Source of the DNA: an uncultured Bacteroidaceae bacterium | GTDB lineage: Bacteria > Bacteroidota > Bacteroidia > Bacteroidales > Bacteroidaceae | DNA: 64,000 bases | Direction: 5' to 3' | Assembly: GCA_934394435.1 (NCBI GenBank) | Contig: CAKRRN010000008.1 | Location: forward strand, 4,290-68,289 | Part shown: positions 4,087 through 25,286 of the stretch, one piece after another | How positions within the stretch are numbered: the first letter of the stretch is position 1 | How the letters are laid out: the number at the start of each line of letters is the position of its first letter | Notes under the pieces: model-generated | The model's input: only the letters and a program-made list of their open reading frames with translations | Told to the model about the DNA's origin: nothing | The model's database searches: none | Translations under genes and position numbers: made by a program

Positions 4087-5721
4087 ATGAACAACAACAT
4101 TAAAGAAAGGCTCACACCGCTACTCATCTCACTTGGTGTCGTTGTCGGAATACTGATTGGCACCTTCTGCACAAGCCATTTCTCAGGCAACCGTTTAAGC
4201 ATCATCAATACCGGCACAAACAAGCTCAGCTATCTGCTACAGATAATTGACAACAACTACGTCGACACCGTAGACATGGCACAGCTGGTAGAAGACGCCA
4301 TGCCTGGCATACTGAAAGAGCTCGATCCACACAGCAGCTACCTAAGCGTACAAGATGCCAAGGAAGCTGACGATGACCTGCGCGGCTCATTCAGCGGAAT
4401 AGGTGTTAGCTTCGTCATGCAGAAGGATACCGTAAACGTAATGTCCGTCATCCATGGAGGTCCCGCAGAAAAAGTAGGCATACTGGCTGGCGACCGCATC
4501 ATTACCGCCAACGACTCTAACCTCGTGGGAATGCAGTCACAAGACGTGATGAAACACCTCAAGGGAGCCAAGGGAAGCAAGGTCAAGCTGGGAATCGTAC
4601 GACACGGAGCAAAAGGCGTCACCACCTTCACCGTCGTACGTGGAGACATCCCCGTTGTAAGCGTAGATGCCTACTATATGATCAACGACGATACAGGATA
4701 CCTGCGCGTCAAGAACTTTGGTGAACAGACCTATGCTGAGATGCTGGTAGCACTGGCTGAACTGAGCGTCAAGGGCATGAAGGGACTCGTGGTCGACCTA
4801 CGAGGAAACGCAGGAGGATACATGCACATTGCCATACAGATGGCAAACGAATTCCTACCCAAAGGCAGACTGATTGTGTACACACAAGGGCGGAAAAGCC
4901 CCAGAGAGGAATTTCGGAGCGATGGGAGAGGCACCTTCCAGACAATTCCCCTGGTTGTGCTCATGGACGAGGGAAGCGCAAGCTCAAGTGAGATCTTCGC
5001 TGGAGCCATTCAAGACAACGACAGGGGAACCATCGTAGGCAGACGCTCCTTCGGAAAAGGACTCGTACAGCAGCCCGTAGAGTTTCGCGATGGGAGTGTG
5101 GTTCGCCTCACCATCGCACGATACTACACACCCAGCGGACGATGCATACAGAAACCCTATGAAAAGGGACATGGAGAAGACTACGAGAACGAACTCCTGG
5201 CACGCTACGAGCGAGGAGAATTCTTCTCACAAGACAGCATACACCAAGACGGACCCTCCTATAAGACACGTATCGGACGAACCGTCTATGGAGGAGGAGG
5301 TATTGTGCCCGATGTCTTCATACCAGAAGACACCACTGCCCTCACCTCTTACTACCGCGAAGCACTCTTAACAGGACACATACGGCAGTTCGCCTTCGCC
5401 TATACAGATGCCAACCGAGACAAACTCATGCAGTATCCCACAGCATCGAAAATGGAAGCCTACCTGCGCACACAGTCGCTGCTCGAACAATTCGCACGCT
5501 TCGCTGACAAGCATTCGCTCCGACGCAGAAACCTCATGCTCTACAAGAGCCGTCGCCTCTTCGAGCGTGCCATCTATGGAAACATCATCTATAATGCCCT
5601 CGACATGAGCGAATACATTCAATTCCTCAACGAAAGCGACCCGACCGTGCTACGCGCTGTAGACATCCTTGAGAAAGGAGAGTCTGTACCAAAGAAACCC
5701 CAGAAGGATAAAAAATCATAA
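4087..5721 (+). CDS. S41-family C-terminal processing peptidase with PDZ domain
   Basis: N-terminal TM anchor, PDZ block GPAEKVGILAGDRII, and catalytic block GSASSSEIFAGAIQDNDRGTIVGRRSFGKGLVQ. Confidence 0.9.
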   Translation: MNNNIKERLTPLLISLGVVVGILIGTFCTSHFSGNRLSIINTGTNKLSYLLQIIDNNYVDTVDMAQLVEDAMPGILKELDPHSSYLSVQDAKEADDDLRGSFSGIGVSFVMQKDTVNVMSVIHGGPAEKVGILAGDRIITANDSNLVGMQSQDVMKHLKGAKGSKVKLGIVRHGAKGVTTFTVVRGDIPVVSVDAYYMINDDTGYLRVKNFGEQTYAEMLVALAELSVKGMKGLVVDLRGNAGGYMHIAIQMANEFLPKGRLIVYTQGRKSPREEFRSDGRGTFQTIPLVVLMDEGSASSSEIFAGAIQDNDRGTIVGRRSFGKGLVQQPVEFRDGSVVRLTIARYYTPSGRCIQKPYEKGHGEDYENELLARYERGEFFSQDSIHQDGPSYKTRIGRTVYGGGGIVPDVFIPEDTTALTSYYREALLTGHIRQFAFAYTDANRDKLMQYPTASKMEAYLRTQSLLEQFARFADKHSLRRRNLMLYKSRRLFERAIYGNIIYNALDMSEYIQFLNESDPTVLRAVDILEKGESVPKKPQKDKKS

Positions 5722-5771
5722 GACGGAGAGAGAGAAGAGACAGCCTCTCCTCCACCCCAAGACAGAAATCA

Positions 5772-5815
5772 AGAGGGCGTGTGTTCCGCAGAATACACGC
5801 CCTCTCTATTTTTCT
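5772..5815. terminator. Bidirectional intrinsic terminator between convergent genes
   Basis: Perfect 11-bp stem AGAGGGCGTGT (5772-5782) / ACACGCCCTCT (5795-5805) followed by CTATTTTTCTTT. It lies between the protease stop (5721) and the stop of the minus-strand gene at 5817. Confidence 0.65.
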
Positions 5816-5816
5816 T

Positions 5817-6056
5817 TCAGAACCCTCTGTCTCTCCCTCTATTCCAGTTCACAGAGTCGCTTGCCTCTCCCAAGCACAGAAGCAGGATAATAGCAAGAAG
5901 CGGACTGCCCAAAAAAGCAACTATCAACCACGCTACAGCACTGCGGTTCCGCCTCTCTGCCATCTTCGCCACCAGAACATAAAGTACGACAACTATAGCC
6001 AGAGTGACAGCAGCCACCAACAATCCTAAGATTGCAAATCCAAAAACCTGAGTCAT
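5817..6056 (-). CDS. Small (79 aa) two-TM membrane protein, paralog of 6641-6952
   Basis: Hydrophobic segments. About 40 residues (LYVLVAKMAERRNRSAVAWLIVAFLGSPLLAIILLLCLGE) are identical to the 103-aa ORF at 6641-6952. The KxxxxxWxxxxxxxPxxG pattern resembles small PLDc_N-type membrane proteins; that assignment is weak. Confidence 0.5.
   Translation of the reverse strand: MTQVFGFAILGLLVAAVTLAIVVVLYVLVAKMAERRNRSAVAWLIVAFLGSPLLAIILLLCLGEASDSVNWNRGRDRGF
5869..5985. repeat. 117-bp direct repeat, copy 1 (partner at 6675-6791)
   Basis: Hand alignment to 6675-6791 gives 8 mismatches in 117 nt. The repeat lies inside the small membrane protein ORF. Confidence 0.85.
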
Positions 6057-6457
6057 TTCATTTTTATTTTTTTATTCTTAATATCAGAGAGCAACAACAA
6101 GCACGCACATCGTACAGCCACTCTCGTAAGCATTCCAGCAGGAAAACCTACAAAACAAAGTTAATATAATATTTTCTGGATAGAACGAAAAACAGCAAAA
6201 AAATCAAAAACCATAAAAAAGAACAAGCCCTTCATTCACAACACTATCCAAGATGTGTTTTTCTCAAATCGCTCATCTGAAAATTCAACTTTCCTTTTAT
6301 CTTCAAGCCGCAGAGGAAAATCCAGTATTCCGATTAGTCTTTATACCCCCATTTCCAATCTACAGACAAGCAAGCTTGATCAGATAAGCATAGGTTGTAG
6401 CTGTGAATTTGCGTCCTAAGTTCCCCTGGGGCTATCGGGTGAGTCCCCTCCCCCCTC

Positions 6458-6497
6458 AAAAAATAGGGCTGGCACTTCTCATAAGGTACCAACCCTA
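6458..6497 (-). terminator. Intrinsic terminator closing the island operon
   Basis: On the minus strand, a 12-bp stem (6497-6486 / 6475-6464, two G-U pairs) is followed by TTTTTT (6463-6458). It sits about 145 nt downstream of the stop at 6641. Confidence 0.6.
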
Positions 6498-6640
6498 AAT
6501 GATTTTTGTTGGAAAGAGATTACCGTACAGCAATAATTCTAAACAAATAAGAATCTTTACTCTTGCGCCTGTTACTATGCCACTCTGATAAGTCAACCTA
6601 CATTTAGTTTTTCATCATTTGTTTGTCAAAATATTTATAT

Positions 6641-6952
6641 TTATCGTATTGTTGAGTCGTTATTTTCTGATTCCCCCAAACACAAAAGTAGGATAATAGC
6701 AAGAAGCGGACTGCCCAAAAAAGCGACTATCAACCATGCGACAGCACTGCGGTTTCGCCTCTCTGCCATCTTCGCCACAAGAACATAAAGTCCTATAACA
6801 AGGGCAATAATTCCTATCACAAAACACAATACCCAAATGACCATTCCAACAATAAGCCAAATATTCTGTTCTTCGTCAAGACTGTCTGTCGTATGCGCAA
6901 AGATGAAGATAGGCAAAATGAATCCTAAAAGCAAGGTCATTAGTCTTTTCAT
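6641..6952 (-). CDS. Small (103 aa) multi-TM membrane protein, last gene of the island operon
   Basis: ATG lies 14 nt after the stop of the upstream gene. There are three hydrophobic segments, and the C-terminal about 40 aa are identical to the 5817-6056 product. Confidence 0.55.
   Translation of the reverse strand: MKRLMTLLLGFILPIFIFAHTTDSLDEEQNIWLIVGMVIWVLCFVIGIIALVIGLYVLVAKMAERRNRSAVAWLIVAFLGSPLLAIILLLCLGESENNDSTIR
6675..6791. repeat. 117-bp direct repeat, copy 2 (partner at 5869-5985)
   Basis: See copy 1. All differences fall in a stretch where the two encoded peptides are identical, so they are synonymous. Confidence 0.85.
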
Positions 6953-6966
6953 GTCTTTCCTACCTA

Positions 6967-7530
6967 TTAAAGTTCTTCCAATTCAGCATCACCATCCGTA
7001 TTCTCCGTTTTCAAGAACGAGAGGAACAGTCGCAGAAAGGCAGTCTCTTTGAAGAAACAATTTGGGTCTACCTCCATCTGTTCTGAAATGTAGGAAAGTC
7101 CGTAGTTTGCATACTGCTCCATCTTGTCAATCAGTTGGTCCACAATCTTCCTGCTGCTAACTTCTCCTTTGTCCAAAGCAATCAAATCGACATCTGTGCG
7201 AGCTATCAATGCAGCAAAAATAAACTTCTGGAGTTTCTCGTAAGGCATTCTGCCCCCTCTGGGCTCAATATTACCCCATTTCTGTATTGGCCACCCAAAC
7301 TTCTTTCTCTTTGCTCTGTCCTCTACCAATGGCTTAGTGCTGTCAAAGTACAGCCCTATGAAGAATGCTATGATAAACATTTCATAACCTGCTCCATATG
7401 GTTTTGCGCGAACAGCCTGATAAGAATTTCGCCCACGACCATAGTCACAAAACACATCCATGACTGACTCTTGATATCGAGTTTCCCATTCAGGGTCTCT
7501 CCTGCTCCATAATTCGAATAAACTCTCCAT
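6967..7530 (-). CDS. Island protein, 187 aa, unknown function (partner of the DndD-like ATPase)
   Basis: ATG lies 2 nt after the stop of the 722-aa gene. AT-rich codon usage matches the island. I recognise no motif. There is one hydrophobic stretch, YEMFIIAFFIGLYF. Confidence 0.65.
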   Translation of the reverse strand: MESLFELWSRRDPEWETRYQESVMDVFCDYGRGRNSYQAVRAKPYGAGYEMFIIAFFIGLYFDSTKPLVEDRAKRKKFGWPIQKWGNIEPRGGRMPYEKLQKFIFAALIARTDVDLIALDKGEVSSRKIVDQLIDKMEQYANYGLSYISEQMEVDPNCFFKETAFLRLFLSFLKTENTDGDAELEEL

Positions 7531-7532
7531 CG

Positions 7533-9701
7533 TTATTTTAGTTTTTCTACCAAAGTTCTTATTGTTGCCATGTTTCTATTGTCGAAATTGGCTGCTTTCT
7601 TTATACGATAAACAATACACGTCAGCTTATCTACTTCGTTTATACGCAGTTCTCCCTTTGTAATAAAGTCTTTTGTGACAATGATGCATTGTTTGTTCAG
7701 TTTATCAATGACATTATAGAATCTTTCTTCTTTAGAATCTCCAAAAGATGATGTTGCGGCATCAAATATAAGTGGGTAGTTTTCATCGCGTTTCTGGTCT
7801 GTGAAGTCGGAAATTGCGAATAGAACAGATATGTACATTACGGTTTCCTGCGAGCCAGAAGGCTTTTTGATTTCACTACCATTAGAACTAAAGAGTTTAA
7901 TCTCTGTGGTGTCCTCTATAGTATGACACAAGCGTATCTCCCCATGGAAGTCCTGTGCGCTCAGTTTCTCCAGATATTCGTTTGCCCGATCTTCCAGATC
8001 AGCAAGAAAGCGTCGCAGATTCTCCTTTTTCGCGTTCTCAAATGCTTTTGCTATTTGTTCCAGCACAAGGTGAACATCTTGATAAACCTTTACCAGACTA
8101 TTCTGTGGGTTCAGTTCACCAAACTTCTTGCGCAATTCTGTTTCCTTTTCTGTCAGACCTTTTAGTTCTTCCTGTAAGTTTGTCAAGCGTTGCACTGCAC
8201 GTTCCTTTTGTTCGAACATGTTTTTGATGTCCTTGAAATCCTTTTGAAGCAATTCCTCTGGCATATTATCAGCCTGAATAAGCAGTCGTGCCTTGTTGTC
8301 TTCCGCATCCTGCTTCTTTTCATTCTCAACTTTAAGGTCTGCACGCCATCTGTCTTCAAGTTGCAAACGGTCATCTATATCAGATGCGATACGAGCAACC
8401 TCTGCTTCCGTACTTCCACCCAAATTTATACTCAGGTTATGTATTTCCTCAACATAGTCCGAAACGAACAGTTGCTTTTCTTCAAGTCTCGTTCTCGCTT
8501 CCTCCAGTTTGGCTTTTTCTTCTATGTGTCTTTTGTATTCTCTGAGTTTGTTAACCATGAATTCATAAGCAGCAGACCCTTCTGGGGCTGGTCTTCCACA
8601 AACCTTACATACATGGTCGTTTATCATCTCCTGCATGGTTTCTTCATTCGGAAGATACCAGGGCAACTCTGGCACTCCGTTAGCCAAAAGTCCCCTAACC
8701 TCGTTATAGGCTTTCAGTTTTCCTCTTTCCATTCCTCTCTGCTCATCGAATTCCTTTTCTTGAAACCGTTTCGCCTTACTATATTGCTGACTCTTCTTTT
8801 TAAACTCAGCCAGTATGGAAGAAAAAGCGCAAAGAATCCATTGTTTGTCCAGCAGAGCCGCATTCTTGTCCACAGCAGAAATGTTTGCCTTCAACTTACT
8901 GATTTTATCACTAAGCGATTTGATGCGCTCACTTATCTCATTGTACCGCTCTGATATTTCCTGGTTTTCTGCAAGTGCGTCCAGTTTTGTCGAGTATAGA
9001 TTTATAGAATCATTTTTCTCCTTTATTTCCTTCTTCTTTTCCAGAATTTCCCCAGACAACCGATTCAGTTGTGCTTCCAGAAGCCGCGCCTCATCTGATA
9101 TTTTTTTATCCGACTTACATTCTTTCAGAAAAGCAGAATTTGATTTCTCTTCAAAGATGGCTGAGAGTTTCACTAGTTCATCAAACTTACGTATGTCAGA
9201 ATATTTATCCACAAGTTCTTTCAGCGCAGTCCTATCCTGAAACACATTCAAGTCAGATTCTCCCTTAAACATACTATACCTCTGGATAAAAGCATCAAAA
9301 CATCTGTTGATAAGGTTTTTTCCAGAAATAGGTTCACGCTCTATGCCGTTTCCCTCGTATCCTCTGAATGTAAGTGATGATGTAGAGAACTCGGATTCTG
9401 ATTTACGTTCAAATGAGAAACGCTTCTCCACGTACTTTTCTTCGCCATCATGCTCAAACAACATAGATACCATCAGCTCGTCACTTTCTCCAACCTCCAG
9501 TTTTGACTTTCTCATCTCCGAAACGTTATCGATGCTGTTGTTTTCAACAGATGTATTGAACAACCATTGCAGAGCCTCAAAAAAAGTGGTTTTTCCATCG
9601 CCATTATCCCCGATGATGAGTGTCAGACCATCAGAAAACTCGAAGCTATTCTCTCCGTAATAACTTCGGAAATTTTTTATTGTCAGTCGTTTAATTAGCA
9701 T
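7533..9701 (-). CDS. DndD-like SMC/RecF-type ABC ATPase with coiled coil and CxxC hook
   Basis: N-terminus LTIKNFRSYYGENSFEFSDGLTLIIGDNGDGKTT (Walker A). Long K/E/L-rich coiled coil interrupted by HVCKVCGRP (CxxC). C-terminal SGSQ signature-like block and PLIFDAATSSFGD (D not followed by E, as in the DndD IDTPLGRLD block). Confidence 0.75.
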   Translation of the reverse strand: MLIKRLTIKNFRSYYGENSFEFSDGLTLIIGDNGDGKTTFFEALQWLFNTSVENNSIDNVSEMRKSKLEVGESDELMVSMLFEHDGEEKYVEKRFSFERKSESEFSTSSLTFRGYEGNGIEREPISGKNLINRCFDAFIQRYSMFKGESDLNVFQDRTALKELVDKYSDIRKFDELVKLSAIFEEKSNSAFLKECKSDKKISDEARLLEAQLNRLSGEILEKKKEIKEKNDSINLYSTKLDALAENQEISERYNEISERIKSLSDKISKLKANISAVDKNAALLDKQWILCAFSSILAEFKKKSQQYSKAKRFQEKEFDEQRGMERGKLKAYNEVRGLLANGVPELPWYLPNEETMQEMINDHVCKVCGRPAPEGSAAYEFMVNKLREYKRHIEEKAKLEEARTRLEEKQLFVSDYVEEIHNLSINLGGSTEAEVARIASDIDDRLQLEDRWRADLKVENEKKQDAEDNKARLLIQADNMPEELLQKDFKDIKNMFEQKERAVQRLTNLQEELKGLTEKETELRKKFGELNPQNSLVKVYQDVHLVLEQIAKAFENAKKENLRRFLADLEDRANEYLEKLSAQDFHGEIRLCHTIEDTTEIKLFSSNGSEIKKPSGSQETVMYISVLFAISDFTDQKRDENYPLIFDAATSSFGDSKEERFYNVIDKLNKQCIIVTKDFITKGELRINEVDKLTCIVYRIKKAANFDNRNMATIRTLVEKLK

Positions 9702-9705
9702 AGTC

Positions 9706-9942
9706 CTATACGCTTTTCTTTAAAAATTCCGTAATTTCCTTGTAGATTTCTCTGTCAGAAGCTCCCTCTGAAGCGCGTATAATAATATGTGCCACAGCAT
9801 TTATAACATAATTGTCAGAATCCTCAGCTTGGTAAGCAGAGGTGAAATTCAAGTCGCTTTCGCTATACTTTCCAAACTTCATCAGTTCTGGATTGAGCAG
9901 AACAGCCTCCAGCATTTTGTCGTTGTTAGTCATGTATGCCAT
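9706..9942 (-). CDS. Island protein, 78 aa, acidic, unknown function
   Basis: Sits between the helicase gene (2-nt gap) and the SMC gene (4-nt gap). No recognisable motif. Confidence 0.5.
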   Translation of the reverse strand: MAYMTNNDKMLEAVLLNPELMKFGKYSESDLNFTSAYQAEDSDNYVINAVAHIIIRASEGASDREIYKEITEFLKKSV

Positions 9943-9944
9943 AT

Positions 9945-12167
9945 CTATAAAATTGATAGATTATAATATGAAACAGTTTCTTCTAATTCTCTGTATGTAT
10001 AGTCCGCATTTTCTGAGAGAGAAGCAAAATCACGCACACGTTTCAGTTCTATCTCAAGCAGACTCCTTTCCATGTTGTAACTTTCTTCAGAGTCGCTAAC
10101 CCATGGTGCAACTATCAAGTCATGGATTATCGCTCGGTGCTTGTCCTTATGCTTACGCAGGATTCTTCCTCTTCTCTGCACAAATTGCCGTGGGTTACCT
10201 GTACTTGCACAAAAAATAGCCATTTCGCTACGCGGCACGTCGACACCTTCGTCCAGACACTTCATGGATGTCAAAACTTCAAGACGCCCGCAGGCAAAGT
10301 CATCCAAGAGCTTGGTACGTTCTCTGGAATCTGAGGTAAACTCCCTTACGGTCGTTTGCGGACTTGTTCTGTAGACCATCTGGGTGTATCTGTCTATCAG
10401 ATGTTCAGACACTTCATCCACTCCCAAAGCATCTGTTGTCTCGAACAAATCTGAAACCGCGTCTGGGCTGTTTCCTTCAGGAACATAAACCAACGTATAT
10501 TTCAGATTGCCCTTTTCTTTGTATCGCTCCTTCAGTATGGCCTCAAATACAGGCTCCTTCTGCTGGGCTTTATGAATAATGCGCTTTCGCTTCAGCAAAA
10601 GAGCTGTCAATATGTCGTTCCCTTGTGCGAACGAATCTCTGTCATAACTAAAGAATTTAGAAAGTTGCCTTGATATTCTCAGATAATCAGCCATTTCCGC
10701 ATCGTTCAACCTCACGACATGAGGATAGTAATAATAACGGCACAGGAAATCATTATCTATGGCCTCACGCATCGAATACTCGAATGTAAAACCATCCGTA
10801 CTACCAAAGAAAGTATTTATCCTCTGGTTACCCAAGTCATCAAACTGACGGTAAGGAGTGGCAGACAAGCCTATTCTTCTCAGATAGCGGATGCTGTCCA
10901 TTCTATCCAGCATTCTCCTCGACCCCATATTATGTGCCTCATCTGCAATCAAAAGAGTTCTATTCTTCGAGAAAGAGTTGAGAGAAGAGAACACATTGTC
11001 CCTTACAAACGAGGAATAGGTTGAGATGATAATGAATGAGTCACCACATCCAGACCGATTAAAGTCTTCTTTCAGATGAAGCAAATCCACCTCGTTTCTC
11101 CAATTCTTGTTTTTAGAATAGACAGTATAGACATTTGAGAAGTCGAACTTCTTGCATTCATCCACCCATTGCTCTACCAATGTTTGGGTTGGTACAAGGA
11201 TGATTGCTTTATAATATCCCTTCCTCTTATAAATCTCCAACAAGCAATTGAGCGATGTAATGGTCTTGCCTGTACCTGTTGCCATCGCAAATAGACCTTT
11301 TTGCCCATTGCTCTTCCAATTTTCGAAGGCTTGATGCTGATATTCGCGAGGACCAGAAGGATAAGGAAAATGAGGCTCTTTGGTATAGTTGTCTTCGCAT
11401 ACCATAGGTAAGACATCGCTCCTATCTGCTTCTGTTCTCCTTTCCTTTATATTCTTGAGTTTCCTTTCCACATCGAGCAATTCTTCCACATCCTTACCTC
11501 CAAAAGTAGACACGACCGCCACCTCAAGTTCTTTGGGAGAAAGATATTCTACCCCTCCCTTTTGATGACTCATAATTGATTCGAACTCTACCCGCTGGCT
11601 TTCTATGCGCTTGCGCACCATAGTGTCAATGCTGTCACTACGATCAATTTTGATTTCCTCTATATTATTGAACAAACCGCTTACCGTGAAGTTTGCAGAA
11701 CCCGTAAAGGAAGTCACACTATCTCCGTCCCTAAACTGTCCAGATTTCGTATGAGCAATACCTCTACGATTACGTGGACATATGATACGAATGTCTATCC
11801 GCTTGTTATAAATAAGGAATGCAAGGCATTCGAAAAACTGCTGCTGATATTCGTCTAAGGTTTGTCTTAACGACTCAAAGTCAGTTAGGTCAAAGCAGTC
11901 TATCAACCCACCGTATACGCCTTTGCTTATGGCATTTTTGTCTGACTCTGAGACTATATGATTTATCACAAGGCGCATTCTTCCACCGTTGACGATAAAT
12001 GTGGCAAATCCATCGGCAAGCACACTTATCGCAGCTGAACTGAAATAGCCCAGTTGAAGGTCAAACTCTGTACTATTTCTCAACCCATCATTGAAGAATC
12101 TCTCTGGTGAATTATATTCTCCAGGACGATAAGTGCCGTCCTCTGCCCAGTTTACATCATATAGCAT
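9945..12167 (-). CDS. PLD-family (single HKD) nuclease domain fused to SF2 DEAH helicase
   Basis: N-terminal IAHTKSGQFRDGD...GSANFT (one HKD-like motif). Helicase motifs: LFAMATGTGKT (I), LIADEAHNMG (II), LGLSATP (III), QRRGRILR (VI). ATG at 12167 is preferred. The ORF-track start at 12203 is a TTG that overlaps the upstream gene. Confidence 0.8.
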   Translation of the reverse strand: MLYDVNWAEDGTYRPGEYNSPERFFNDGLRNSTEFDLQLGYFSSAAISVLADGFATFIVNGGRMRLVINHIVSESDKNAISKGVYGGLIDCFDLTDFESLRQTLDEYQQQFFECLAFLIYNKRIDIRIICPRNRRGIAHTKSGQFRDGDSVTSFTGSANFTVSGLFNNIEEIKIDRSDSIDTMVRKRIESQRVEFESIMSHQKGGVEYLSPKELEVAVVSTFGGKDVEELLDVERKLKNIKERRTEADRSDVLPMVCEDNYTKEPHFPYPSGPREYQHQAFENWKSNGQKGLFAMATGTGKTITSLNCLLEIYKRKGYYKAIILVPTQTLVEQWVDECKKFDFSNVYTVYSKNKNWRNEVDLLHLKEDFNRSGCGDSFIIISTYSSFVRDNVFSSLNSFSKNRTLLIADEAHNMGSRRMLDRMDSIRYLRRIGLSATPYRQFDDLGNQRINTFFGSTDGFTFEYSMREAIDNDFLCRYYYYPHVVRLNDAEMADYLRISRQLSKFFSYDRDSFAQGNDILTALLLKRKRIIHKAQQKEPVFEAILKERYKEKGNLKYTLVYVPEGNSPDAVSDLFETTDALGVDEVSEHLIDRYTQMVYRTSPQTTVREFTSDSRERTKLLDDFACGRLEVLTSMKCLDEGVDVPRSEMAIFCASTGNPRQFVQRRGRILRKHKDKHRAIIHDLIVAPWVSDSEESYNMERSLLEIELKRVRDFASLSENADYTYRELEETVSYYNLSIL

Positions 12168-12181
12168 AACATATTGGATTT

Positions 12182-13282
12182 TCAGATAAAACAATTGGCA
12201 CAAACGTATTCATCACCAAAAAGTTCAGCGAGACTTGTACCTTTGTTCTTGCTTTTGTTGGCTTCCTGCCGCTTGATGATATCCAACTTTACCTGTCGAA
12301 TGCGCTCCGGCTTAATTAAATCAGCCAAGCTCTCATTCTGAATCCAAGTATAGCCATCCTTTTCAAAAGACATTGCTTTCTTGTATAGGTCAGGATGCTG
12401 CTCGTAGAGCCAAATCCACTCTATTTTCTGTTGAAAGAAACAGAAATAGCAACCACTTCTACTACGACAATAAGTGCCTGTTTTACCATCTACCTCGAAA
12501 GGGATCTCTTCATAATAAGCAGGCACTCCCACTCCGCTTTCTCTCAACAGCCGGAAGATGTCTTCCTTTACCAAAACCTCATCATTATCAATCAGCGGAA
12601 ATGAATCAAGATGACCTACTGGATAATCAGTAGTCTTCAAAAAATCAAACACAGCATGATTGAACATCTTCACATTTACGTCCAATAATGCATTCAGCTT
12701 CTTGGAGTAAAAGAATTGTTTGGTGATAGGCTTTTTAAGGACGTCCATCAAGTCCTCTTTCATCATGCCATCTGGGCACAATTTGTCATAGATGTCGATA
12801 ATCTGCTCTTGGTTTTCCTTATGCAAGAACTTATTGATAACATCCACACTCCAGATATTCCTTCTGAAAGGAAAGACTGACTGAATATTTGGTTTGGATG
12901 ATACATAGCCATCACGGTCTTCATCACCACGGATTCCCACGTACGAAACCGCATAGTCATCGCCCACATACCTCTCAAACTCATCCAGTTTCATTTTCTT
13001 AGTACACCAACGAGCTTGTGGTGAAGGCAAGAAGCCTCCAGCAGCTTTCAAGAAATGCTCAAAAGGCGTTGGCTCAGGACTGTCTTCCGCAGCCCTAAGT
13101 CTTTTGATACTTCCGAGATAAGCACTCAGTCTATCTATCAGTAGTTCTGTCTCCGCCAACTCACACCCAGTATCCGAGTTATAATACTCAATCTTCAAGG
13201 TTGGGTATTTCTGTTTGAGATAGATGGCAAGTGCAGCACTATCCTTTCCACCAGATATTCCTAATATATTTCGTACTTTCAT
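12182..13282 (-). CDS. PP-loop ATP pyrophosphatase of the PAPS-reductase/DndC/SspD-like family
   Basis: N-terminal ILGISGGKDSAALAIYL (SGGKDS PP-loop) and a C-terminal Cys cluster YCRSRSGCYFCFF (C-x6-C-x2-C). 366 aa. Confidence 0.8.
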   Translation of the reverse strand: MKVRNILGISGGKDSAALAIYLKQKYPTLKIEYYNSDTGCELAETELLIDRLSAYLGSIKRLRAAEDSPEPTPFEHFLKAAGGFLPSPQARWCTKKMKLDEFERYVGDDYAVSYVGIRGDEDRDGYVSSKPNIQSVFPFRRNIWSVDVINKFLHKENQEQIIDIYDKLCPDGMMKEDLMDVLKKPITKQFFYSKKLNALLDVNVKMFNHAVFDFLKTTDYPVGHLDSFPLIDNDEVLVKEDIFRLLRESGVGVPAYYEEIPFEVDGKTGTYCRSRSGCYFCFFQQKIEWIWLYEQHPDLYKKAMSFEKDGYTWIQNESLADLIKPERIRQVKLDIIKRQEANKSKNKGTSLAELFGDEYVCANCFI

Positions 13283-13306
13283 TTTCGTTTTTGTTTGCAG
13301 AAAAGA

Positions 13307-16300
13307 CTATTTGCCTAACTTCTTATTTAATATTTTCAGTAATGTGCATACTGACACATTGTCGTTTTCTACCCTATCAAGGAGTTTGTCTATATTTTTT
13401 TCCAGTTCCTCCGATTTCTGCAATTCACTCTCTGGCAATCGGAATGTTTGAGAATGAATGTTATTTCCCTTGGTAGAAACTAAATCCAGCGAATAGATTT
13501 CATCCGACTCATATTTAGCTACTTTCGAGATATCCGAGTATTTCTCACATTCACGAAAGAGCATAATCAGACTATCAATCAACTTCTCCTCTTGCTCATC
13601 ACGCAATCGCTCCAATGGCTGTTCCAATGCAGTATAACATATTGATTGATACCATTCATTCCTATTGTCAAACTCAGCCATCACATGCTGATAGAATTCT
13701 TTCAATCTATCCGTTAGCAAATACTCTTTGACATTGGCAAGACGTTGTCTTATCGTTACAACGTATCCTGAATAATCGTAAGAGTCAATGCCCAATGTGT
13801 CAAGCAAACGGCCTTCCACACGGTCTATCATATCGGAATAGCAAGAACGCAGTTCCTTGACAGCACGGTTGATTACATAGCAAAATTCCTCTACTTTCTT
13901 TGGATTCTGCAATGCTTCCTTATCATAGCCCAATGTCTCAGGCAAATCTTCAAAGAAGGTTTTCTCTGGGTCTTTTGCCTTAGCTAATGTATCACGGAAC
14001 TTTGCCGTCTGCTCATGATTGAACTTACGGGTATGCTTGGCATAGTCATTCAGTCTCTTGTTGTAGAAGAAAAAGAACGGTTTGATGGTCTCTATGAAAT
14101 CATCGCTCTTGATACTCCCCATAGCCTCAACGTTCAGAAACTTTCTGTACTGATTAAAGATTTGCACCTTTACTCCCGTCACATCAAAAGCCTTGATAAA
14201 ATATTCACCTGGATGCTTCTGCAACAATTCAAAGAACTCCATATTGATGTTCGGAATATAAGCTCCATTGGCTCCATATAGAGAGTAGTCTTGCTTCTTT
14301 ATATATAAATAGGTAGGAATCCAAAAGTCCAAGAATCCTTGCTTCAATTTATATGGTTTAGCCGACAACTTCTTTATCAGTTCAGAAATCTTACGAGCCT
14401 TAAAAGTTGTCGATTTCAAAAACTCTTCACATGCTTCCCACAAAGGCATAATTCCCTCATTAGAGGGCACATCAGAGAACTCCCCATTCATATGAAGCCC
14501 CGTGCTTTTCAACAGAGAATAATAGATGGTCTTCTCTGGAGGAAATTTATCGGCAGGGAATCCTAAATCAGCCTCACTGCTTTGGCTTAGCAATGCAGCC
14601 AAGTACTTTCCCTTAGCACAGGATATGGAACTGCTCAACTTATGCTTATTAAACAATTCGTTATTCATCACTGGTGTTTGTGAATAAATCTCATCACAAA
14701 CCACAGAGAGCAACTGGTTGAATTCTCGCAAAGAGCGGACTTCTCTTTCCTCTCCCTTGAATATCCATGTGACATCTCCACTATAAGCAAACAAGCTCTC
14801 GCTGATAGACTTATTGAGCACCACCTTCTCATACTCCATCAGGTTGTTTATCTCATTGATTGCCACCTTGTCCGACTTATCAATCAGGACTTTACTCAAT
14901 ATGTATTTGAATTTCTCTATTTGATAAAGATGAGATACCAACTCGTCAGTATTTCTAAAACAAACAAAGATGATAGCATTTTCACTCTTCGCGCTGAGTT
15001 CACAAAGCTCCTCTAATACAGTTTTATGAGATGAAAATATCAGCTGTATGAATCCATCTGTATCGCCAACAGGAGTTTTATCCGCACCTTCTCCAAGCAC
15101 CTCATATTCAAAATACCTTGGAGTTCCTTTTTGGAAATAGCAAGCCTTTACTGGAGCTACCTTCTTGAAACAATAGTTTCTGATGTCATCCACATAATTC
15201 ACAGGACGACTCACCACCAATCCCGCTTTGCGTATCTCATCCTCTATGTTTATGTCTGTTCCATCAAACAAAATATAACGGAGCTTATAGTTGGCATAAC
15301 GGATTATCTTGAATTGCTCCAACTTATTCAAGAGACTCGTTGGGTTCTCTATATCTAAAGCCATCTTTGCATACGCAGCTGTTTTCTCTCGGTTCATTTT
15401 GAAAGAAGAATTGCCAAAAAGGTTCAATAAACCAATAGCCTTCACCAACTTGATGGCATCTACCAAATCCGTCTTCGTATTCCAAAGTTGTCCCTCCACT
15501 CTCTCAATGGCGACTTGCATAGAACTCCATTGCATAGAATCGGCATTAGCCTCTTTCAGATAAGAGTAGAAGTTGTAATAAATGTAATCATAGCAGCACT
15601 GAAGCTGATAGACCTTACCAGCAAACTCCGACAAAGAGTTTCGTCCCCTTGCATTCAAGAAAGAAAACAAGGAGCGTTCGTTTTGTCCGTATCGCTGAAT
15701 GGCTTGCGTAATAACACAAGCGGCAAAAGGCTCTAATGGAGACAACGCATGAGCGGTCGCTTTCGAGAAACTTTGAGAGACAAAACCCGTCTTCTTCGCT
15801 AATGAAGCCAAAGATTCTATTGTCTTTTCGTTGCTCCGCTTATCCAACAAATCTGACTTTATCTGCATCGAAGCCAAATAAAGAAGTTGCTCTACAGGCT
15901 CCACAAATACCAACTCCTGGAAACGTCCCTTTACTTTGGTCCACTCCTCCTTTTGAACCTCGTTGAGCTTTCGCGAATATGCGTTGAAATTCTGATGAAG
16001 TGTAGTCAAAAGCAAAATGTTTCTTGTTGGCACATTGACAAATTCTGCCAACTTTTGCATAAAGTAAAGTTCTCTTTCTGGATTATTCTTGGCTGCATGC
16101 TCCAAGACCTTGCCAAATTCATCAATAAAGATAACCAAAAACTTACCTTGGCTCTTCAGCTTATTGTATCTATTGCGAAGCTCGTCAAGAATGCTACCTG
16201 TTGTGCCCTCCACAGATAGTTTCTGACTTAACAACACAGAAAGTTCCTTATAGTCACCAATAATTTTAAGAATCTCGAATCTCTTTTTCCCCGAAAGTTC

Positions 16301-16531
16301 CGTAGGATTCAACAATTCATATTGCTTTCCACCCATCAAGTCTCTCTCTAATGCCAACAAGAAACTTGATTTACCCGTTCCGTATGAGCCAATAATCGTA
16401 TAAGAATGAACCCCAGAGCGGAATCCGTTTACGATACCCTCAGCCACCTGTCGGGCATTGGGAGTAACTATATATTGAGCCTCTTTCGCAAAGCCCTCTT
16501 CTATATTTGCGGATAAACTAAACTGTCGCAT
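13307..16531 (-). CDS. Large (1074 aa) P-loop NTPase, SspC/BrxC-like by position and motifs
   Basis: Walker A IIGSYGTGKSSFLLAL and Walker B FLVIFIDEFGKVLEH near the N-terminus. The remaining about 850 aa have no motif I recognise. The start overlaps the upstream gene by 14 nt. Confidence 0.7.
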   Translation of the reverse strand: MRQFSLSANIEEGFAKEAQYIVTPNARQVAEGIVNGFRSGVHSYTIIGSYGTGKSSFLLALERDLMGGKQYELLNPTELSGKKRFEILKIIGDYKELSVLLSQKLSVEGTTGSILDELRNRYNKLKSQGKFLVIFIDEFGKVLEHAAKNNPERELYFMQKLAEFVNVPTRNILLLTTLHQNFNAYSRKLNEVQKEEWTKVKGRFQELVFVEPVEQLLYLASMQIKSDLLDKRSNEKTIESLASLAKKTGFVSQSFSKATAHALSPLEPFAACVITQAIQRYGQNERSLFSFLNARGRNSLSEFAGKVYQLQCCYDYIYYNFYSYLKEANADSMQWSSMQVAIERVEGQLWNTKTDLVDAIKLVKAIGLLNLFGNSSFKMNREKTAAYAKMALDIENPTSLLNKLEQFKIIRYANYKLRYILFDGTDINIEDEIRKAGLVVSRPVNYVDDIRNYCFKKVAPVKACYFQKGTPRYFEYEVLGEGADKTPVGDTDGFIQLIFSSHKTVLEELCELSAKSENAIIFVCFRNTDELVSHLYQIEKFKYILSKVLIDKSDKVAINEINNLMEYEKVVLNKSISESLFAYSGDVTWIFKGEEREVRSLREFNQLLSVVCDEIYSQTPVMNNELFNKHKLSSSISCAKGKYLAALLSQSSEADLGFPADKFPPEKTIYYSLLKSTGLHMNGEFSDVPSNEGIMPLWEACEEFLKSTTFKARKISELIKKLSAKPYKLKQGFLDFWIPTYLYIKKQDYSLYGANGAYIPNINMEFFELLQKHPGEYFIKAFDVTGVKVQIFNQYRKFLNVEAMGSIKSDDFIETIKPFFFFYNKRLNDYAKHTRKFNHEQTAKFRDTLAKAKDPEKTFFEDLPETLGYDKEALQNPKKVEEFCYVINRAVKELRSCYSDMIDRVEGRLLDTLGIDSYDYSGYVVTIRQRLANVKEYLLTDRLKEFYQHVMAEFDNRNEWYQSICYTALEQPLERLRDEQEEKLIDSLIMLFRECEKYSDISKVAKYESDEIYSLDLVSTKGNNIHSQTFRLPESELQKSEELEKNIDKLLDRVENDNVSVCTLLKILNKKLGK

Positions 16532-17381
16532 TCTTATAATATTTATCTAAAACGTCTATGCCTGTTAAAGAAAGACCTTCCCTAAACAATAGCTGACGAA
16601 TACCAGCATTGTCACTATACTGAACATAATCAGAATACGCTTCACCAATAGATTGTACCATATCTATCACCTCTGCGTCTGTCATGCAGAACATCAACCC
16701 AATCTCTTGCAAAGTATCGTAAGAAACGGACTTATCCTCACCTTTCTCTTGCAAAATAGCATATAGAAAGATTTCCATAGGGACCTTTCGCTTGCCCTCA
16801 ATATTAAAGGTGAACGATTTGCCATTATCCTCTGTTCTGATTAAATCCAAATCTATGAGAAGAGAAGAATAATCCTCAAAAGACTTTGCCTTATAAGGCT
16901 GGGCATAGTTTTGCAACAAGACACCCACGTCCTTCTTGGTAGTATTGGCATTAAACGGTTTGTCTTTCCTATCATCTATCATGAGTCTCTTGACAAAACT
17001 TACAAGCTGGTCTCTCTCAAAAGCCTTTCTTTCTTTCTGAAACTGTACAAAAGCGATATGATAAAGAGTTGCCTCTCTTTGACTTACTAACAGGTAATGA
17101 AGCAACCACAATGTTCCCAAACTCTCGATGTACTTATCTACGCCATCTGTTCCGTCAAAAAGATATTTCGCTATCTTTGTTGGCTTATCTTGCTCAGACA
17201 ATCCGAAAACCTTCAGCCAATAACGGATAGAAGAAACCATATTCTTGCCTACCCCCAAAGCGACAACCGCATCAGAAGCATTGAAGTTTCCTCCATCTAT
17301 CATAAAATTATATCCCTTGGTGAGCCATAAAGTTTTACAAGGAAAAGATTCATGCCCAGAGAGCGTGTATTTATTGTACAT
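16518..17381 (-). CDS. DUF4007-like protein (SspB-like), first gene of the island operon
   Basis: N-terminus LSGHESFPCKTLWLTKGY and LGVGKNMVSSIRYWLKVFGL match my recollection of the DUF4007 signature (GHE.F..R..WL.K / LGVGKNMV.S.RYW). 287 aa. Confidence 0.65.
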   Translation of the reverse strand: MYNKYTLSGHESFPCKTLWLTKGYNFMIDGGNFNASDAVVALGVGKNMVSSIRYWLKVFGLSEQDKPTKIAKYLFDGTDGVDKYIESLGTLWLLHYLLVSQREATLYHIAFVQFQKERKAFERDQLVSFVKRLMIDDRKDKPFNANTTKKDVGVLLQNYAQPYKAKSFEDYSSLLIDLDLIRTEDNGKSFTFNIEGKRKVPMEIFLYAILQEKGEDKSVSYDTLQEIGLMFCMTDAEVIDMVQSIGEAYSDYVQYSDNAGIRQLLFREGLSLTGIDVLDKYYKNATV

Positions 17382-18137
17382 CTATCCAGTAAAGACAGCC
17401 GAATCCCAAAGCCGAAATGTTTAATCCTCCTGCGTTTGTACCTCTACAAAAAAGGAAGCGTGGGATCCTTCACTTGCCCATCCCACTACTCGAAGGCCTT
17501 CGCATTGCCCAACTGTCGAGACGGACAATGCAGAAAGCCCACGCTTGTATGGCATATAGCTCTGCATATAAAGGAAACAGCACGAAGGACACAAGACACT
17601 ATCATGTCCGCATCCACACACATAACTGTTCGCTGCAGGTTACAATACACCTACCGTGGACATTCACCCATTGTCTCACCTGCTGACAGTTTGGTAAAGT
17701 TGCGAAGTTTACGAGTAGTCGCAGACGAGCGTCAAGTAAACGCCCTTTCCGTAAAAGTAGCACCCTCCCCACCCCCTCTGGGGCTTTCTGCGAGGATAAT
17801 GCCTTGCAAATATAAGGATTTTTTATATACGGTTATCCGTCAAAGCACTAAAACAATATAATATTCTCATCCTTTTCCAACTCCTCAAACGTTAGCGGAG
17901 TGCTCCACCTGCCATAAGACTCTACGCAGAAGCATCACTACACCAACCTCGGGCGAAGAGACGACGGAACACTCTATCCCCAAAAGCTATGGATGGATAA
18001 CGTAAATGTGAATACAGACTAAGTATGCCTTCGCACAGCGACAACAGGAGAGGAAAAAGGCTCTGGAGAGAGAAAGGGTAAAAGGAATTTCCCACACTAA
18101 TCAAACTCTCGAAATCTTAATCTTATAGTTCTTAAAA

Positions 18138-18287
18138 CCAAATCGGTCATTAGAAAATTTTGCTTCCATTTTATCTCAAAATAGAGCAAAAGTCACGTAT
18201 TATGTTAGCATACAGATACTATAACGAGAGTATAACCTGATATAGTCTAACTTTTTGCATGGGAAAAATCTCTAATGACCGATTTGG
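18138..18287. mobile_element. MITE-like element, about 150 bp, with 17-bp perfect terminal inverted repeats
   Basis: CCAAATCGGTCATTAGA (18138-18154) is the exact reverse complement of TCTAATGACCGATTTGG (18271-18287). No ORF lies inside. The same TIR occurs at 24753/24949 and 50702. Confidence 0.6.
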
Positions 18288-18579
18288 GTTAAACAAACAG
18301 TAAGCAAACAAAATGAAGTACAATATCTCAAAAAAAAGACCGCTTCAAAGATGCAAAATCTGGGCAAAAGGAGAGAATTTTTAGCACTTTTGCTCTCGCA
18401 AGTGTCTCGAGACATGTACGAAGCCATTGTGCCCACAATTTTCCCTTCGCTCGGAGCAAACATAAGTGGAGCGGAATTTCTGTATCACGACCTCTCATGG
18501 AAGGAAACGAGCGGTATGTAGACCTATCCTGGTGGCAGGAAATTTATCTTATGCAAAGATTTATCCATTCGGGGATTTT

Positions 18580-24049: not shown

Positions 24050-24186
24050 CCTTATATAATATATATAAATTACATGATAGATTGTACATGCAAATTTAGT
24101 GGAAAAGAGAGAGAGAGACAACTTTTTCTATAGAAACATCAATCAAATTCTTGGAGGTAATGTAGAAAAGATGTACCTTTGTCATA

Positions 24187-24443
24187 GAAACAAGCAAGCG
24201 AGCTACAGACCTACCGCACTGGTTCGACTGGGATACTCATCAATAATTTACATGAAACCGAGAAAAGTTTCATTTGCCAATGGCGGGCCACGCTCCGAAA
24301 GGAGTTCCGATGAGGACGGTGGATTACAAAGGCGATGAACACTCAAAACCTATTCATTCGGAGTTTCATCACATCACCAGTGCGGTTCCCATAGGAGCGG
24401 ACAGGAGTGCAACAAGACGCGCTTCTGCCCGCTCTCCTTTTTT
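24187..24443 (+). ncRNA. Candidate structured small RNA of unknown class
   Basis: ORF-free region. There is a -7-like TACCTTTG at 24174-24181, an 11-bp perfect long-range helix 24213-24223/24376-24386, a GNRA hairpin CTCC-GAAA-GGAG at 24293-24304 at the midpoint, and a T6-tailed stem at the 3' end. Confidence 0.4.
24394..24443 (+). terminator. Intrinsic terminator-like stem plus T6
   Basis: GGAGCGGACAG...CTGCCCGCTCTCC forms an imperfect stem followed by TTTTTT (24438-24443). Confidence 0.45.
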
Positions 24444-24752
24444 ATAGAAGCAAAAAGAAAACGGCTCTGTTTATTTTGGTTCGACCGATAAACCAATGGG
24501 AGCTTCGGAAGTAAAATCACAGGCATAACCTGTACTTATAAGCCAACCTGCTTGTCTGTACAAAGGATATAATAATAAGGTCCATACGAAACGGCTCAAT
24601 TTATTTTCTTAGTTGGAGAAAAATATTTTCCCAGTTAGGAAAAAAGAAAAGCCCTATTGTGGCCCACTATTATCGTTTCATAAAATGGATAGTGCGTCTA
24701 CCTTTTTACTCTGTTTATACTGTGAGAAAACGTATCTACGGAAATCAATAAA

Positions 24753-24949
24753 CCCAAATCGGTCACTAGACCGAAACAAAGAACCCATTCCTGCTGATGG
24801 ATAGTTCTTGCCAATCCCTATCAGCCTTTCTTCCGGCAGATTGTTTCCAGACTTGTCTTGACATAGCCCACTATGCCTTCGACACGTCTGAAAACAATCT
24901 GCTCGAAAAAAAAAACTAATATGAATCAGTATCTAATGACCGATTTGGG
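24753..24949. mobile_element. MITE-like element, 197 bp, with 18-bp TIRs (1 mismatch)
   Basis: CCCAAATCGGTCACTAGA (24753-24770) versus TCTAATGACCGATTTGGG (24932-24949). The interior is roughly 90% identical by eye, in inverted orientation, to 50534-50702. Confidence 0.7.
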
Positions 24950-24964
24950 ATAAAAAGTCACTCT

Positions 24965-25003
24965 AAAAAGTAAGCCGTCTTCATTGGCCAATGAAGACGG
25001 CTT
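24965..25003 (-). terminator. 32-bp perfect palindrome followed (minus strand) by a T5 run
   Basis: AAGCCGTCTTCATTGG/CCAATGAAGACGGCTT at 24972-25003. On the minus strand it is followed by ACTTTTTAG. It lies about 285 nt downstream of the mfd stop. Confidence 0.4.
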
Positions 25004-25053
25004 CAATAGCCTTTGAAGACGACTTACTTGGGCTTTGAAGACTATATTACTTG
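24992..25053. repeat. TGAAGAC motif repeated three times at exact 22-bp spacing
   Basis: TGAAGAC at 24992, 25014 and 25036, plus an inverted copy GTCTTCA at 24977. The last two units share GCYTTGAAGAC...TTACTTG. Confidence 0.6.
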
Positions 25054-25286
25054 CAATACCCCCTTAGCATCCATCCTTACCCTTGTGAAAACGGTTTCCT
25101 CTCTATTAGCCTGTCCTCGTCAAATTTCAGCTGAAGCTAATTCTATATTCCACCTCTTGGTTTATCTGGTAAGCCTATATTGTCTCTGAGCTTTACGACT
25201 ACACCTTGGAGGCTCTGATTCTACGGTGATGGTTCGTCCCTCTCCCCTCATCCACAAGAGAAAGGACCGAGGAAGCGTTGACTTCC

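Follow-up and report, generated by a model that had tools for sequence, protein, structure and literature searches.

The stretch of DNA described here, called the window, comprises 64,000 nucleotides (nt) from an uncultured Bacteroidaceae bacterium and carries on its minus strand an operon in which the genes of a predicted phosphorothioate (PT) writing module, SspBCD, are followed by those of a PbeABCD cassette, the whole being preceded by a structured leader RNA. Eight minus-strand open reading frames (ORFs) are recovered from the ORF list between 17381 and 6641, tightly packed and with the junctions given in an initial annotation of the locus: sspB and sspC overlap by 14 nt, a gap of 24 nt separates sspC from sspD, and a gap of 14 nt separates sspD from pbeA when pbeA starts with ATG. 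The guanine-plus-cytosine (GC) content, counted in 1-kb windows, is 0.38-0.44 over 6001-18000, against 0.50-0.53 in the left flank and 0.53-0.56 in the right flank (0.50-0.56 for both), and the block is probably a horizontally acquired operon; it is foreign by composition, as had been proposed. The features are the following.

17807-17814, minus strand: predicted promoter motif TAtaTTTG, a Bacteroidales-type -7 element, at the 5' edge of the leader
17382-17806, minus strand: structured leader RNA of ~430 nt, between the promoter motif and the sspB ATG
16518-17381, minus strand: sspB, 287 amino acids (aa); PADLOC SspB, E 3.1e-88, full length; Pfam DUF4007, E 4.1e-75
13307-16531, minus strand: sspC, 1074 aa, ORC/Cdc6-BrxC-like P-loop ATPase; PADLOC SspC (PDLC02776), 1179 bits
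12182-13282, minus strand: sspD, 366 aa, PP-loop ATP pyrophosphatase with a Cys cluster; PADLOC SspD, E 4.6e-83
9945-12167, minus strand: pbeA, 740 aa, single-HKD PLD nuclease with a DEAH SF2 helicase; PADLOC PbeA (PDLC02706), 1033.9 bits
9706-9942, minus strand: pbeB-like gene for a small acidic protein, 78 aa, isoelectric point (pI) 4.7, with the position and size of PbeB
7533-9701, minus strand: pbeC-like gene for a 'CxC' coiled-coil ABC ATPase with a zinc hook, 722 aa; Pfam AAA_23, E 1.4e-17, and AAA_15
6967-7530, minus strand: pbeD-like gene, 187 aa, in the position of PbeD; candidate DndE cognate whose acidic C-terminal tail ends in DDxPExL
6641-6952, minus strand: 103-aa membrane ORF, accessory, outside the conserved cassette and found only in the related loci L001 and L030
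~6497-6458, minus strand: terminator-like hairpin and U-run closing the operon

The closing hairpin is the intrinsic terminator of the initial annotation, and RNAfold gives it a 12-bp stem, AGGGUUGGUACC...GGUGCCAGCCCU, followed by AUUUUUUG. A simple consensus terminator scan makes no call at 6497-6458 because the loop of this hairpin is too long.

The eight operon proteins were compared with the PADLOC, Pfam and NCBIfam profile libraries. The first three genes, which had been noted to resemble SspB, SspC and SspD, match the corresponding PADLOC models with rounded E values of 3e-88, 0 and 5e-83. SspB, a DNA-recognition component with a triple winged helix-turn-helix (HTH), reaches 253 bits against Pfam DUF4007, whose cutoff is 27. 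The alignment of SspC spans positions 6-1038 of the 1039 in PDLC02776, and its match to BrxC is weaker (205 bits); its Walker A motif GxYGTGKS is found in 63/64 homologues and its Walker B motif DEFGK in 64/64. SspD, which is predicted to be the sulfur-inserting enzyme, is the most conserved protein of the operon (66-96% identity across loci), with the SGGKDS motif in 73/74 homologues and Cys residues C278, C281, C361 and C364 invariant in all 74. DndC models score ~23 bits at most against it (TIGR03183, 18.9 bits, cutoff 290). ORFs 1-3 are thus assigned, by profile matches and motifs, to the SspBCD phosphorothioation module.

ORFs 4-7 correspond to a PbeABCD cassette in order, sizes and architecture, the PbeB-like and PbeD-like members being assigned by position and size. 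PbeA is an HKD-SF2 nuclease, PbeB a small, rapidly evolving protein, PbeC a 'CxC' zinc-hook ABC ATPase and PbeD a DndE cognate in the re-annotation of Krishnan 2024 (PMC10853773), and in the type system PbeB has 66 aa and PbeD 152 aa (PMC6459918). The window PbeA aligns with positions 3-722 of the 722 in PDLC02706 and matches ResIII, DEAD, Helicase_C and, weakly, PLDc_2 in Pfam; its best NCBIfam match is TIGR04095, 'DNA phosphorothioation system restriction enzyme', with 392 bits, below the cutoff of 600. Of 67 homologues, 66-67 keep residues H151, K153, D159, G168, S169 and N171, and the same is true of helicase motifs I, II (DEAH), III and VI. The ORF can be extended to a TTG at 12203 (752 aa; 9945-12203). 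The ATG at 12167 is the likely start, since homologues align in tblastn from residues 12-16 onwards and 740 aa is also the length given by an independent metagenome gene caller.

The sixth protein had been taken for a DndD-like ATPase of the classical Dnd pathway. This has to be revised, as it matches PbeC, LmuB and the generic AAA_23 and has no DndD match. Its Walker A motif GxNGDGKT, the pair C365-K-x-C368 at the coiled coil's centre and the PLIFDA motif are invariant in 74 sequences. The profile searches proposed with the initial annotation thus place SspB, SspC, SspD and PbeA over their full length and PbeC weakly, and place neither of the two small proteins.

Among the 80 related loci described below, the 78-aa protein is detected in 68 (33-79% identity; median pI of homologues 4.67) and the 187-aa protein in 72. 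The family of the latter has at least 733 database homologues, none of them with a Pfam domain. An AlphaFold2 model of the 187-aa protein (pLDDT 75, pTM 0.74) was compared by Foldseek with 350,542 PDB chains, and the result agrees with the published annotation as a divergent DndE cognate without amounting to proof; its scores are given where the reading of the operon is weighed. A profile search with the 187-aa protein against PDB sequences gives no DndE match, and the only PDB sequence match for the family, 2lvs (E 0.049), was set aside as it falls in a C-terminal HTH-like extension that the window protein lacks. This extension follows the acidic tail in L016, L020, L021, L026, L032, L033 and L037 (380-382 aa), in L036 (483 aa) and in L062 (279 aa), and in it the HTH-like segment that weakly matches 2lvs is accompanied by a further conserved domain. 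Some UniRef and NCBI records of the family (P0027, P0099, P0100) bear the name 'glycoside hydrolase family 15', apparently a misannotation that has been propagated.

Conservation and probable coupling of the two modules

Scanning one genome per species yielded 248 PbeA relatives; the loci of the best 80 (51-85% identity; L001-L080) were searched by tblastn with all eight proteins of the operon. Most of these loci belong to Prevotella, Segatella, Bacteroidaceae, Muribaculaceae and other Bacteroidales, and a few come from Firmicutes or spirochaete bins. Cultured strains that carry the operon include Segatella copri G8 (CP146523), Prevotella dentasini JCM 15908, Prevotella corporis DSM 18810, Lepagella muris NM04_E33, Parabacteroides distasonis An897 and Phocaeicola coprophilus An818. 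The order sspB-sspC-sspD-pbeA-p78-pbeC-p187, where p78 and p187 are the genes of the 78-aa and 187-aa proteins, is kept in 76 of the 76 loci with sequence upstream of pbeA, so that the seven-gene order, whose conservation in Bacteroidota the initial annotation had left to be checked, holds wherever there is room for it. SspD is found in 76/80 loci, the four exceptions being contigs that begin inside or just before pbeA.

The proposed unit of eight genes is reduced by one, as seven are conserved and the 103-aa membrane ORF occurs in 2/80 loci only (L001 and L030, the two closest, with 55-56% identity), which rules it out as a component of the system. One of two metagenome gene calls leaves it uncalled, PADLOC gives no match below E 0.4, and its Pfam and NCBIfam matches are sub-threshold only. 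A 79-aa ORF at 5817-6056 (minus strand), ~800 bp downstream, is a tandem paralogue of this tiny membrane protein, which has a weak cardiolipin-synthase N-terminal-like match: over its last (3') 128 nt the 103-aa ORF shares 90.6% identity with 5866-5993, within the 79-aa ORF.

The similarity of each protein to its window counterpart was correlated between proteins across loci (rho), a crude measure since it is a distance to a single reference. SspC and SspD vary together (0.84), PbeA follows both (0.61-0.62; 0.61 with SspC), and PbeC and the 187-aa protein form a second block (0.93), to which PbeA is not tied (PbeA-PbeC, -0.18). It follows that the nuclease-helicase moves together with the writer and that the PbeB-C-D part is free to recombine. 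That PbeA tracks SspC and SspD argues for a functional coupling of the two modules.

Extra genes lie between sspD and pbeA in eight loci, and several of these inserts were identified by PADLOC. The insert at L045:6814-9102 is a full-length SspE (E 3e-266), so that L045 has both SspE and PbeABCD; L073:2485-3720 encodes a DndB-like protein, and L051:935-3041 a DUF262 (NsnA-like) protein with a Ser/Thr-kinase-like protein. Other insertions are found in L055 and L067 (~6050-9360), L050 and L072, and the inserts include a GHKL-ATPase-like pair and an AAA-ATPase pair without a model match. Judged by these predicted products, the sspD-pbeA scaffold accepts further PT-linked effectors and regulators.

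The preferred reading, to which we give a probability of roughly 0.7, is that the operon would encode a PT-based, restriction-modification-like defence assembled from two known modules. Marks in the Ssp systems studied so far are single-stranded phosphorothioates at short motifs. SspB (for DNA recognition), SspC (an AAA+ ATPase) and SspD (a PP-loop/Fe-S sulfur transferase) would mark the host chromosome in this manner, with sulfur supplied by a cysteine desulfurase that is presumably encoded elsewhere, because a six-frame motif scan of the window, which is not rigorous, found no desulfurase signature, in line with the initial annotation. The zinc-hook ABC ATPase PbeC and its putative DndE-like 187-aa partner would scan DNA and report its modification status. 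PbeA, with its HKD nuclease and DEAH translocase, would attack unmodified incoming DNA or block its replication, and the small acidic PbeB-like protein may be a regulatory or inhibitory subunit. Published experiments back each half separately, namely the dependence of Pbe on PT (PMC6459918) and the detection of CpsC in gut isolates with sspBCD (PMC12914056).

Several points weigh against this reading. The linkage in 76/76 loci holds for the clade of the 80 closest of 248 PbeA relatives and not for Pbe generally, and the correlation of SspC with PbeC is -0.03, as PbeC and the 187-aa protein evolve independently of the Ssp genes. SspD does not match Pfam PAPS_reduct at E<=0.01. The 78-aa and 187-aa proteins have no PADLOC match even at E<=10 and none in Pfam or NCBIfam, the match of the 722-aa protein to PADLOC PbeC is weak (77 bits) and covers the N-terminal residues 1-305 only, and the top Foldseek hit of the 187-aa model, Escherichia coli DndE (4LRV), is not significant (E 3.6, TM 0.45). 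In addition, in the view of Krishnan et al. (PMC10853773), CxC/Pbe systems are often independent of PT modules and may act by cell suicide.

Cell suicide is the core of the rival that survives best, although it is still judged unlikely: Pbe would be an abortive infection system in which PbeB restrains PbeA, and phage interference with PbeB or with PT writing frees PbeA onto host DNA. Such a role was proposed in PMC10853773 on account of the rapid evolution and mostly disordered nature of the small protein, and viral DNA stays undegraded in the archaeal system (PMC6459918). The 78-aa protein of the window fits in part, as it is acidic, less conserved than any other member of the operon and missed by tblastn in 12 loci; however, some of its positions are conserved, and its appearance is not that of a purely disordered peptide. 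A PT-modified virus escapes the archaeal system, which fits discrimination between self and non-self (PMC6459918), and sequence does not separate self-targeting from non-self-targeting.

It is more doubtful that the operon joins two independent neighbours, with SspBCD as a solitary epigenetic PT writer and PbeABCD as a self-contained system that does not read Ssp marks. This rival draws on CxC/Pbe systems that occur without any PT module in many taxa, whose role as a PT-dependent restriction arm has been questioned (Krishnan, PMC10853773), on the 320 of 553 pbeAC pairs without dndCD nearby (Xiong 2019, PMC6459918), on the lack of correlation of PbeC and the 187-aa protein with SspC noted above, and on loci such as L029 (Segatella copri G8), in which SspBCD is 89-96% identical to the window and PbeA, PbeC and PbeD are 43-61% identical. 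Against it, the modules adjoin each other on one strand and in an unchanged order in every informative locus, no conserved promoter or leader lies between them, PbeA co-varies with SspC and SspD (rho ~0.6) and not with PbeC, and some of the genes inserted at the sspD-pbeA junction (SspE, DndB) are themselves PT-linked.

Least probable is a new modification type, in which the SspD-like enzyme makes a mark that differs in motif or chemistry from the canonical single-strand CpsCA PT: SspD fits PADLOC's single SspD model in two stretches separated by an insert and lacks the Pfam match, and the PT written by BREX type 4 relatives in Bacteroidales lies at several different motifs, but the SGGKDS motif and Cys cluster are retained in this most conserved of the proteins, SspB and SspC match over their full length, and gut isolates with sspBCD contain CpsC.

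The leader RNA and the flanks of the island

The leader lies between the promoter motif and sspB. The sequence at 17814-17807 is called a promoter motif on the ground of its fit to TAnnTTTG, which we take to be the Bacteroides promoter consensus, and its TTTG occupies the same alignment position in related loci. The DNA of the leader is conserved in loci with diverged proteins, and no conserved ORF is found in the region among related loci; as its indels are also not multiples of three, a missed protein gene was rejected. Its structural elements are as follows.

~17746-17726, minus strand: hairpin
17720-17655 with 17544-17483, minus strand: long-range 'rod' helices
17544-17538 with 17464-17458, minus strand: alternative terminator-like fold, GCGUGGG with CCCACGC
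17529-17518 with ~17484-17473, minus strand: second helix of the alternative fold, AUUGUCCGUCUC with GGGAUGGGCAAG
17457-17445, minus strand: U-run after the alternative fold
~17414-17395, minus strand: small covarying hairpin just 5' of the sspB ATG

RNAalifold, applied to 15 leader copies, yields 44 pairs, 20 of them with compensatory changes. In these copies 93.3% of cells are paired, against 39-47% when the partners are slid, and 0/500 shuffles reach the observed score. Two mutually exclusive folds are backed by an unbiased column-pair scan and by formal counts on 86 non-redundant copies. Fold A, the long-range rod, has 92.9% of cells paired (38-42% in slid controls; 0/500 shuffles reach the score), with changes on both sides in 553 cells (51-116 slid) over 26 pairs, and contains a 7-9-bp helix that is hypervariable yet always complementary. 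Fold B, the terminator-like fold, has 98.4% of cells paired (42-52% in slid controls), with changes on both sides in 53 cells over 11 pairs (2-5 slid), and its GCGUGGG-CCCACGC helix stands directly 5' of the U-run. The short hairpins did not emerge from local RNAalifold on MAFFT sub-blocks, because alignment and structure are out of register.

The leader looks like an attenuator, because its conserved segments are those with two alternative partners. Transcription would start at the Bacteroidales-type promoter and pass through the ~430-nt leader, where the rod may allow read-through and the terminator-like fold may form instead. An invertible DNA repeat (inverton) was rejected as an explanation, since G-U pairs are numerous on one strand and the structure contains several short helices that are nested. 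In the leader region, Rfam 15, with which the whole window was searched, has no match at gathering scores and only chance matches at E<=10, and in 20 other members of the leader family nothing overlaps the RNA. The leader may be one of the thousands of unnamed motifs that Fremin and Bhatt 2021 predicted from microbiomes.

An nhmmer profile places the leader directly upstream of sspB in 17 loci. Its core pattern is found in at least 120 metagenome stretches and 17 IMG/VR contigs, all of which match the profile; sspB lies downstream in 1/137 of these further copies among the matches listed, which rules out an RNA specific to Ssp-Pbe. The copies studied are those of the window, L001, L003, L004, L006, L007, L014, L019, L022, L024, L029, L030, L036, L052, L062, L070 and L083-L219. 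In gut and rumen metagenomes and IMG/VR contigs there are at least 150 copies, before very diverse genes: BrxP of BREX type 4 (E 6e-251) in 8 loci, NusG/UpxY-like proteins in 6 loci, GajB/UvrD-like helicases, a C5 methyltransferase, and many lipoproteins, membrane proteins and unannotated proteins. A same-strand ORF mostly starts within ~100 nt of the leader. The genes upstream fall into 73 clusters among 102 loci, and the neighbour seen most often on that side is a divergently oriented Abi-like gene (8/102). An annotated phage collection contains one match, itself unannotated, and an annotated plasmid collection none. A housekeeping small RNA serving as an integration hotspot was rejected, as both flanks vary, the leader moves with the cassette into varied genomic settings and a same-strand ORF is close in most copies. 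Thus the leader does not belong to Ssp-Pbe itself but is a portable module.

Beside this leader, some loci show other conserved elements. The abiF RNA motif RF03085 is found just upstream of the leader on the opposite strand at L196:2044-2080 and L184:2662-2695. Nine loci (L009, L010, L011, L015, L016, L020, L021, L025 and L028) have immediately upstream of sspB another, unrelated and very highly conserved leader of ~330 nt, which starts at a TTTG promoter motif, has GGUACGCC-loop-GGCGUACC and long-range complementary segments, and ends at its 3' side with GGGUACGUUC and a U-run. Other sequences upstream of sspB, conserved within each cluster, are found in smaller clusters of 5, 3 and 2 loci.

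Around the island, ~770 nt of apparently non-coding DNA with intermediate GC (17815-18579) separate it from the rhamnosidase gene (18580-21303), and ~900 nt of the same character (5722-6640) separate it from a 544-aa ORF (4087-5721). A Bacteroidales-1 (6S-like) RNA (RF01693, 140.6 bits) lies at 24212-24393 on the plus strand, within a second low-GC dip (24000-25500), and a tRNA scan of the window found none.

Comparison with known systems

Some 84% of the known sspBCD clusters lack an identified restriction partner (PMC8092258), and the operon is a concrete, conserved candidate for that role in a large group of gut Bacteroidales. It is also a natural test of whether Pbe depends on the type of PT mark, single- or double-stranded, which is disputed between the Xiong and Krishnan papers. 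The most novel element of the locus is the uncatalogued two-state leader RNA, which accompanies many accessory genes of a dominant gut phylum and could point to a general gate on the expression of horizontally acquired genes. A broader proposal remains tentative, at a little short of even odds: SspBCD-PbeABCD may be a third Ssp-coupled class, widespread in gut Bacteroidales, in which the zinc-hook ATPase and a DndE-like partner read single-stranded PT and license the HKD-helicase, and this would be the first evidence of a writer-agnostic Pbe effector. Under the same proposal the leader would be a portable attenuator RNA of ~300-430 nt that gates many acquired defence genes (Ssp-Pbe, BREX type 4, GajB-like helicases) in Bacteroidales and their mobile elements, as well as capsule-regulator (UpxY/NusG-like) and surface-protein genes.

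The leader resembles terminator/antiterminator leaders (attenuators, expression platforms of riboswitches, and processive-antitermination RNAs such as put or EAR) in its position between promoter and first gene, its two exclusive covarying folds and its stem with a U-run. It differs from them in its length of ~300-430 nt, the absence of an Rfam 15 match and the absence of an obvious ligand or leader peptide, and from metabolite riboswitches in preceding functionally unrelated genes.

The initial annotation knew of no described system with both ATPase types and a PLD-helicase, but one had been published: DndCDEA-PbeABCD (PMC6459918, PMC10853773), in which pbeABCD is a four-gene cassette after dndCDEA (Xiong 2019, PMC6459918) and PT is needed for PbeABCD protection (PMC6459918). 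The window operon shares with it the order of the cassette (HKD-SF2 helicase, small protein, zinc-hook ABC ATPase and a protein of ~150-190 aa) and its place directly 3' of a PT-writing module on the same strand. It differs in the writer, which is SspBCD, without DndC, DndD, DndE or a linked desulfurase, and in its PbeB, PbeC and PbeD, which are strongly diverged from the PADLOC models. As the writer is SspBCD and not DndCDEA, the mark would be expected to be single-stranded PT rather than double-stranded. Classical Dnd (DndABCDE/DndFGH) was rejected as an assignment, with DndC and DndD models at noise level and no DndF, DndG or DndH matches.

SspABCD-SspE was reportedly described by Xiong in 2020. 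With this system and SspABCD-SspFGH the operon shares the sspBCD writer and the logic of a PT writer with a downstream effector, and also the dispensable or unlinked sspA, as in E. coli 3234/A; the effector is PbeABCD instead of the DUF262-DUF1524 protein SspE or SspFGH. In the literature, sspBCD needs no linked sspA, which is dispensable or replaceable by IscS, and CpsC is detected in gut isolates with sspBCD (PMC12914056). The published partners of sspBCD are sspE and sspFGH; neither is present in 83.9% of 2,678 sspBCD clusters, and further partners were predicted (Wang 2021, PMC8092258).

BREX type 4 (BrxP, BrxC, PglZ, BrxL; PMC12914056) is likewise a PT writer of gut Bacteroidales, in the same phylum. 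BrxP amounts to an SspD-SspB fusion, BrxC and SspC are homologous, and in 8 loci the gene that follows the same leader RNA is brxP. The operon itself is not BREX type 4, since the eight proteins include no PglZ or BrxL match, BrxP matches with E 0.004 only, and SspC scores 1179 bits against 205 bits for BrxC.

Linked Ssp and Pbe genes are not described in the literature searched that mentions both, a search to which subscription-only papers and curated tool definitions are external, and neither the BREX type 4 study (PMC12914056) nor the BREX-diversity study mentions Pbe. Each half of the operon matches its own curated model in the right order, which, by the standard that the initial annotation set itself, refutes about half of its proposal. 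Of the undescribed defence system first proposed, the parts are already known and what remains is the coupling of an Ssp writer to Pbe. The locus is thus not a new system, and SspBCD and PbeABCD are familiar modules in a pairing that appears new and is conserved in gut Bacteroidales.

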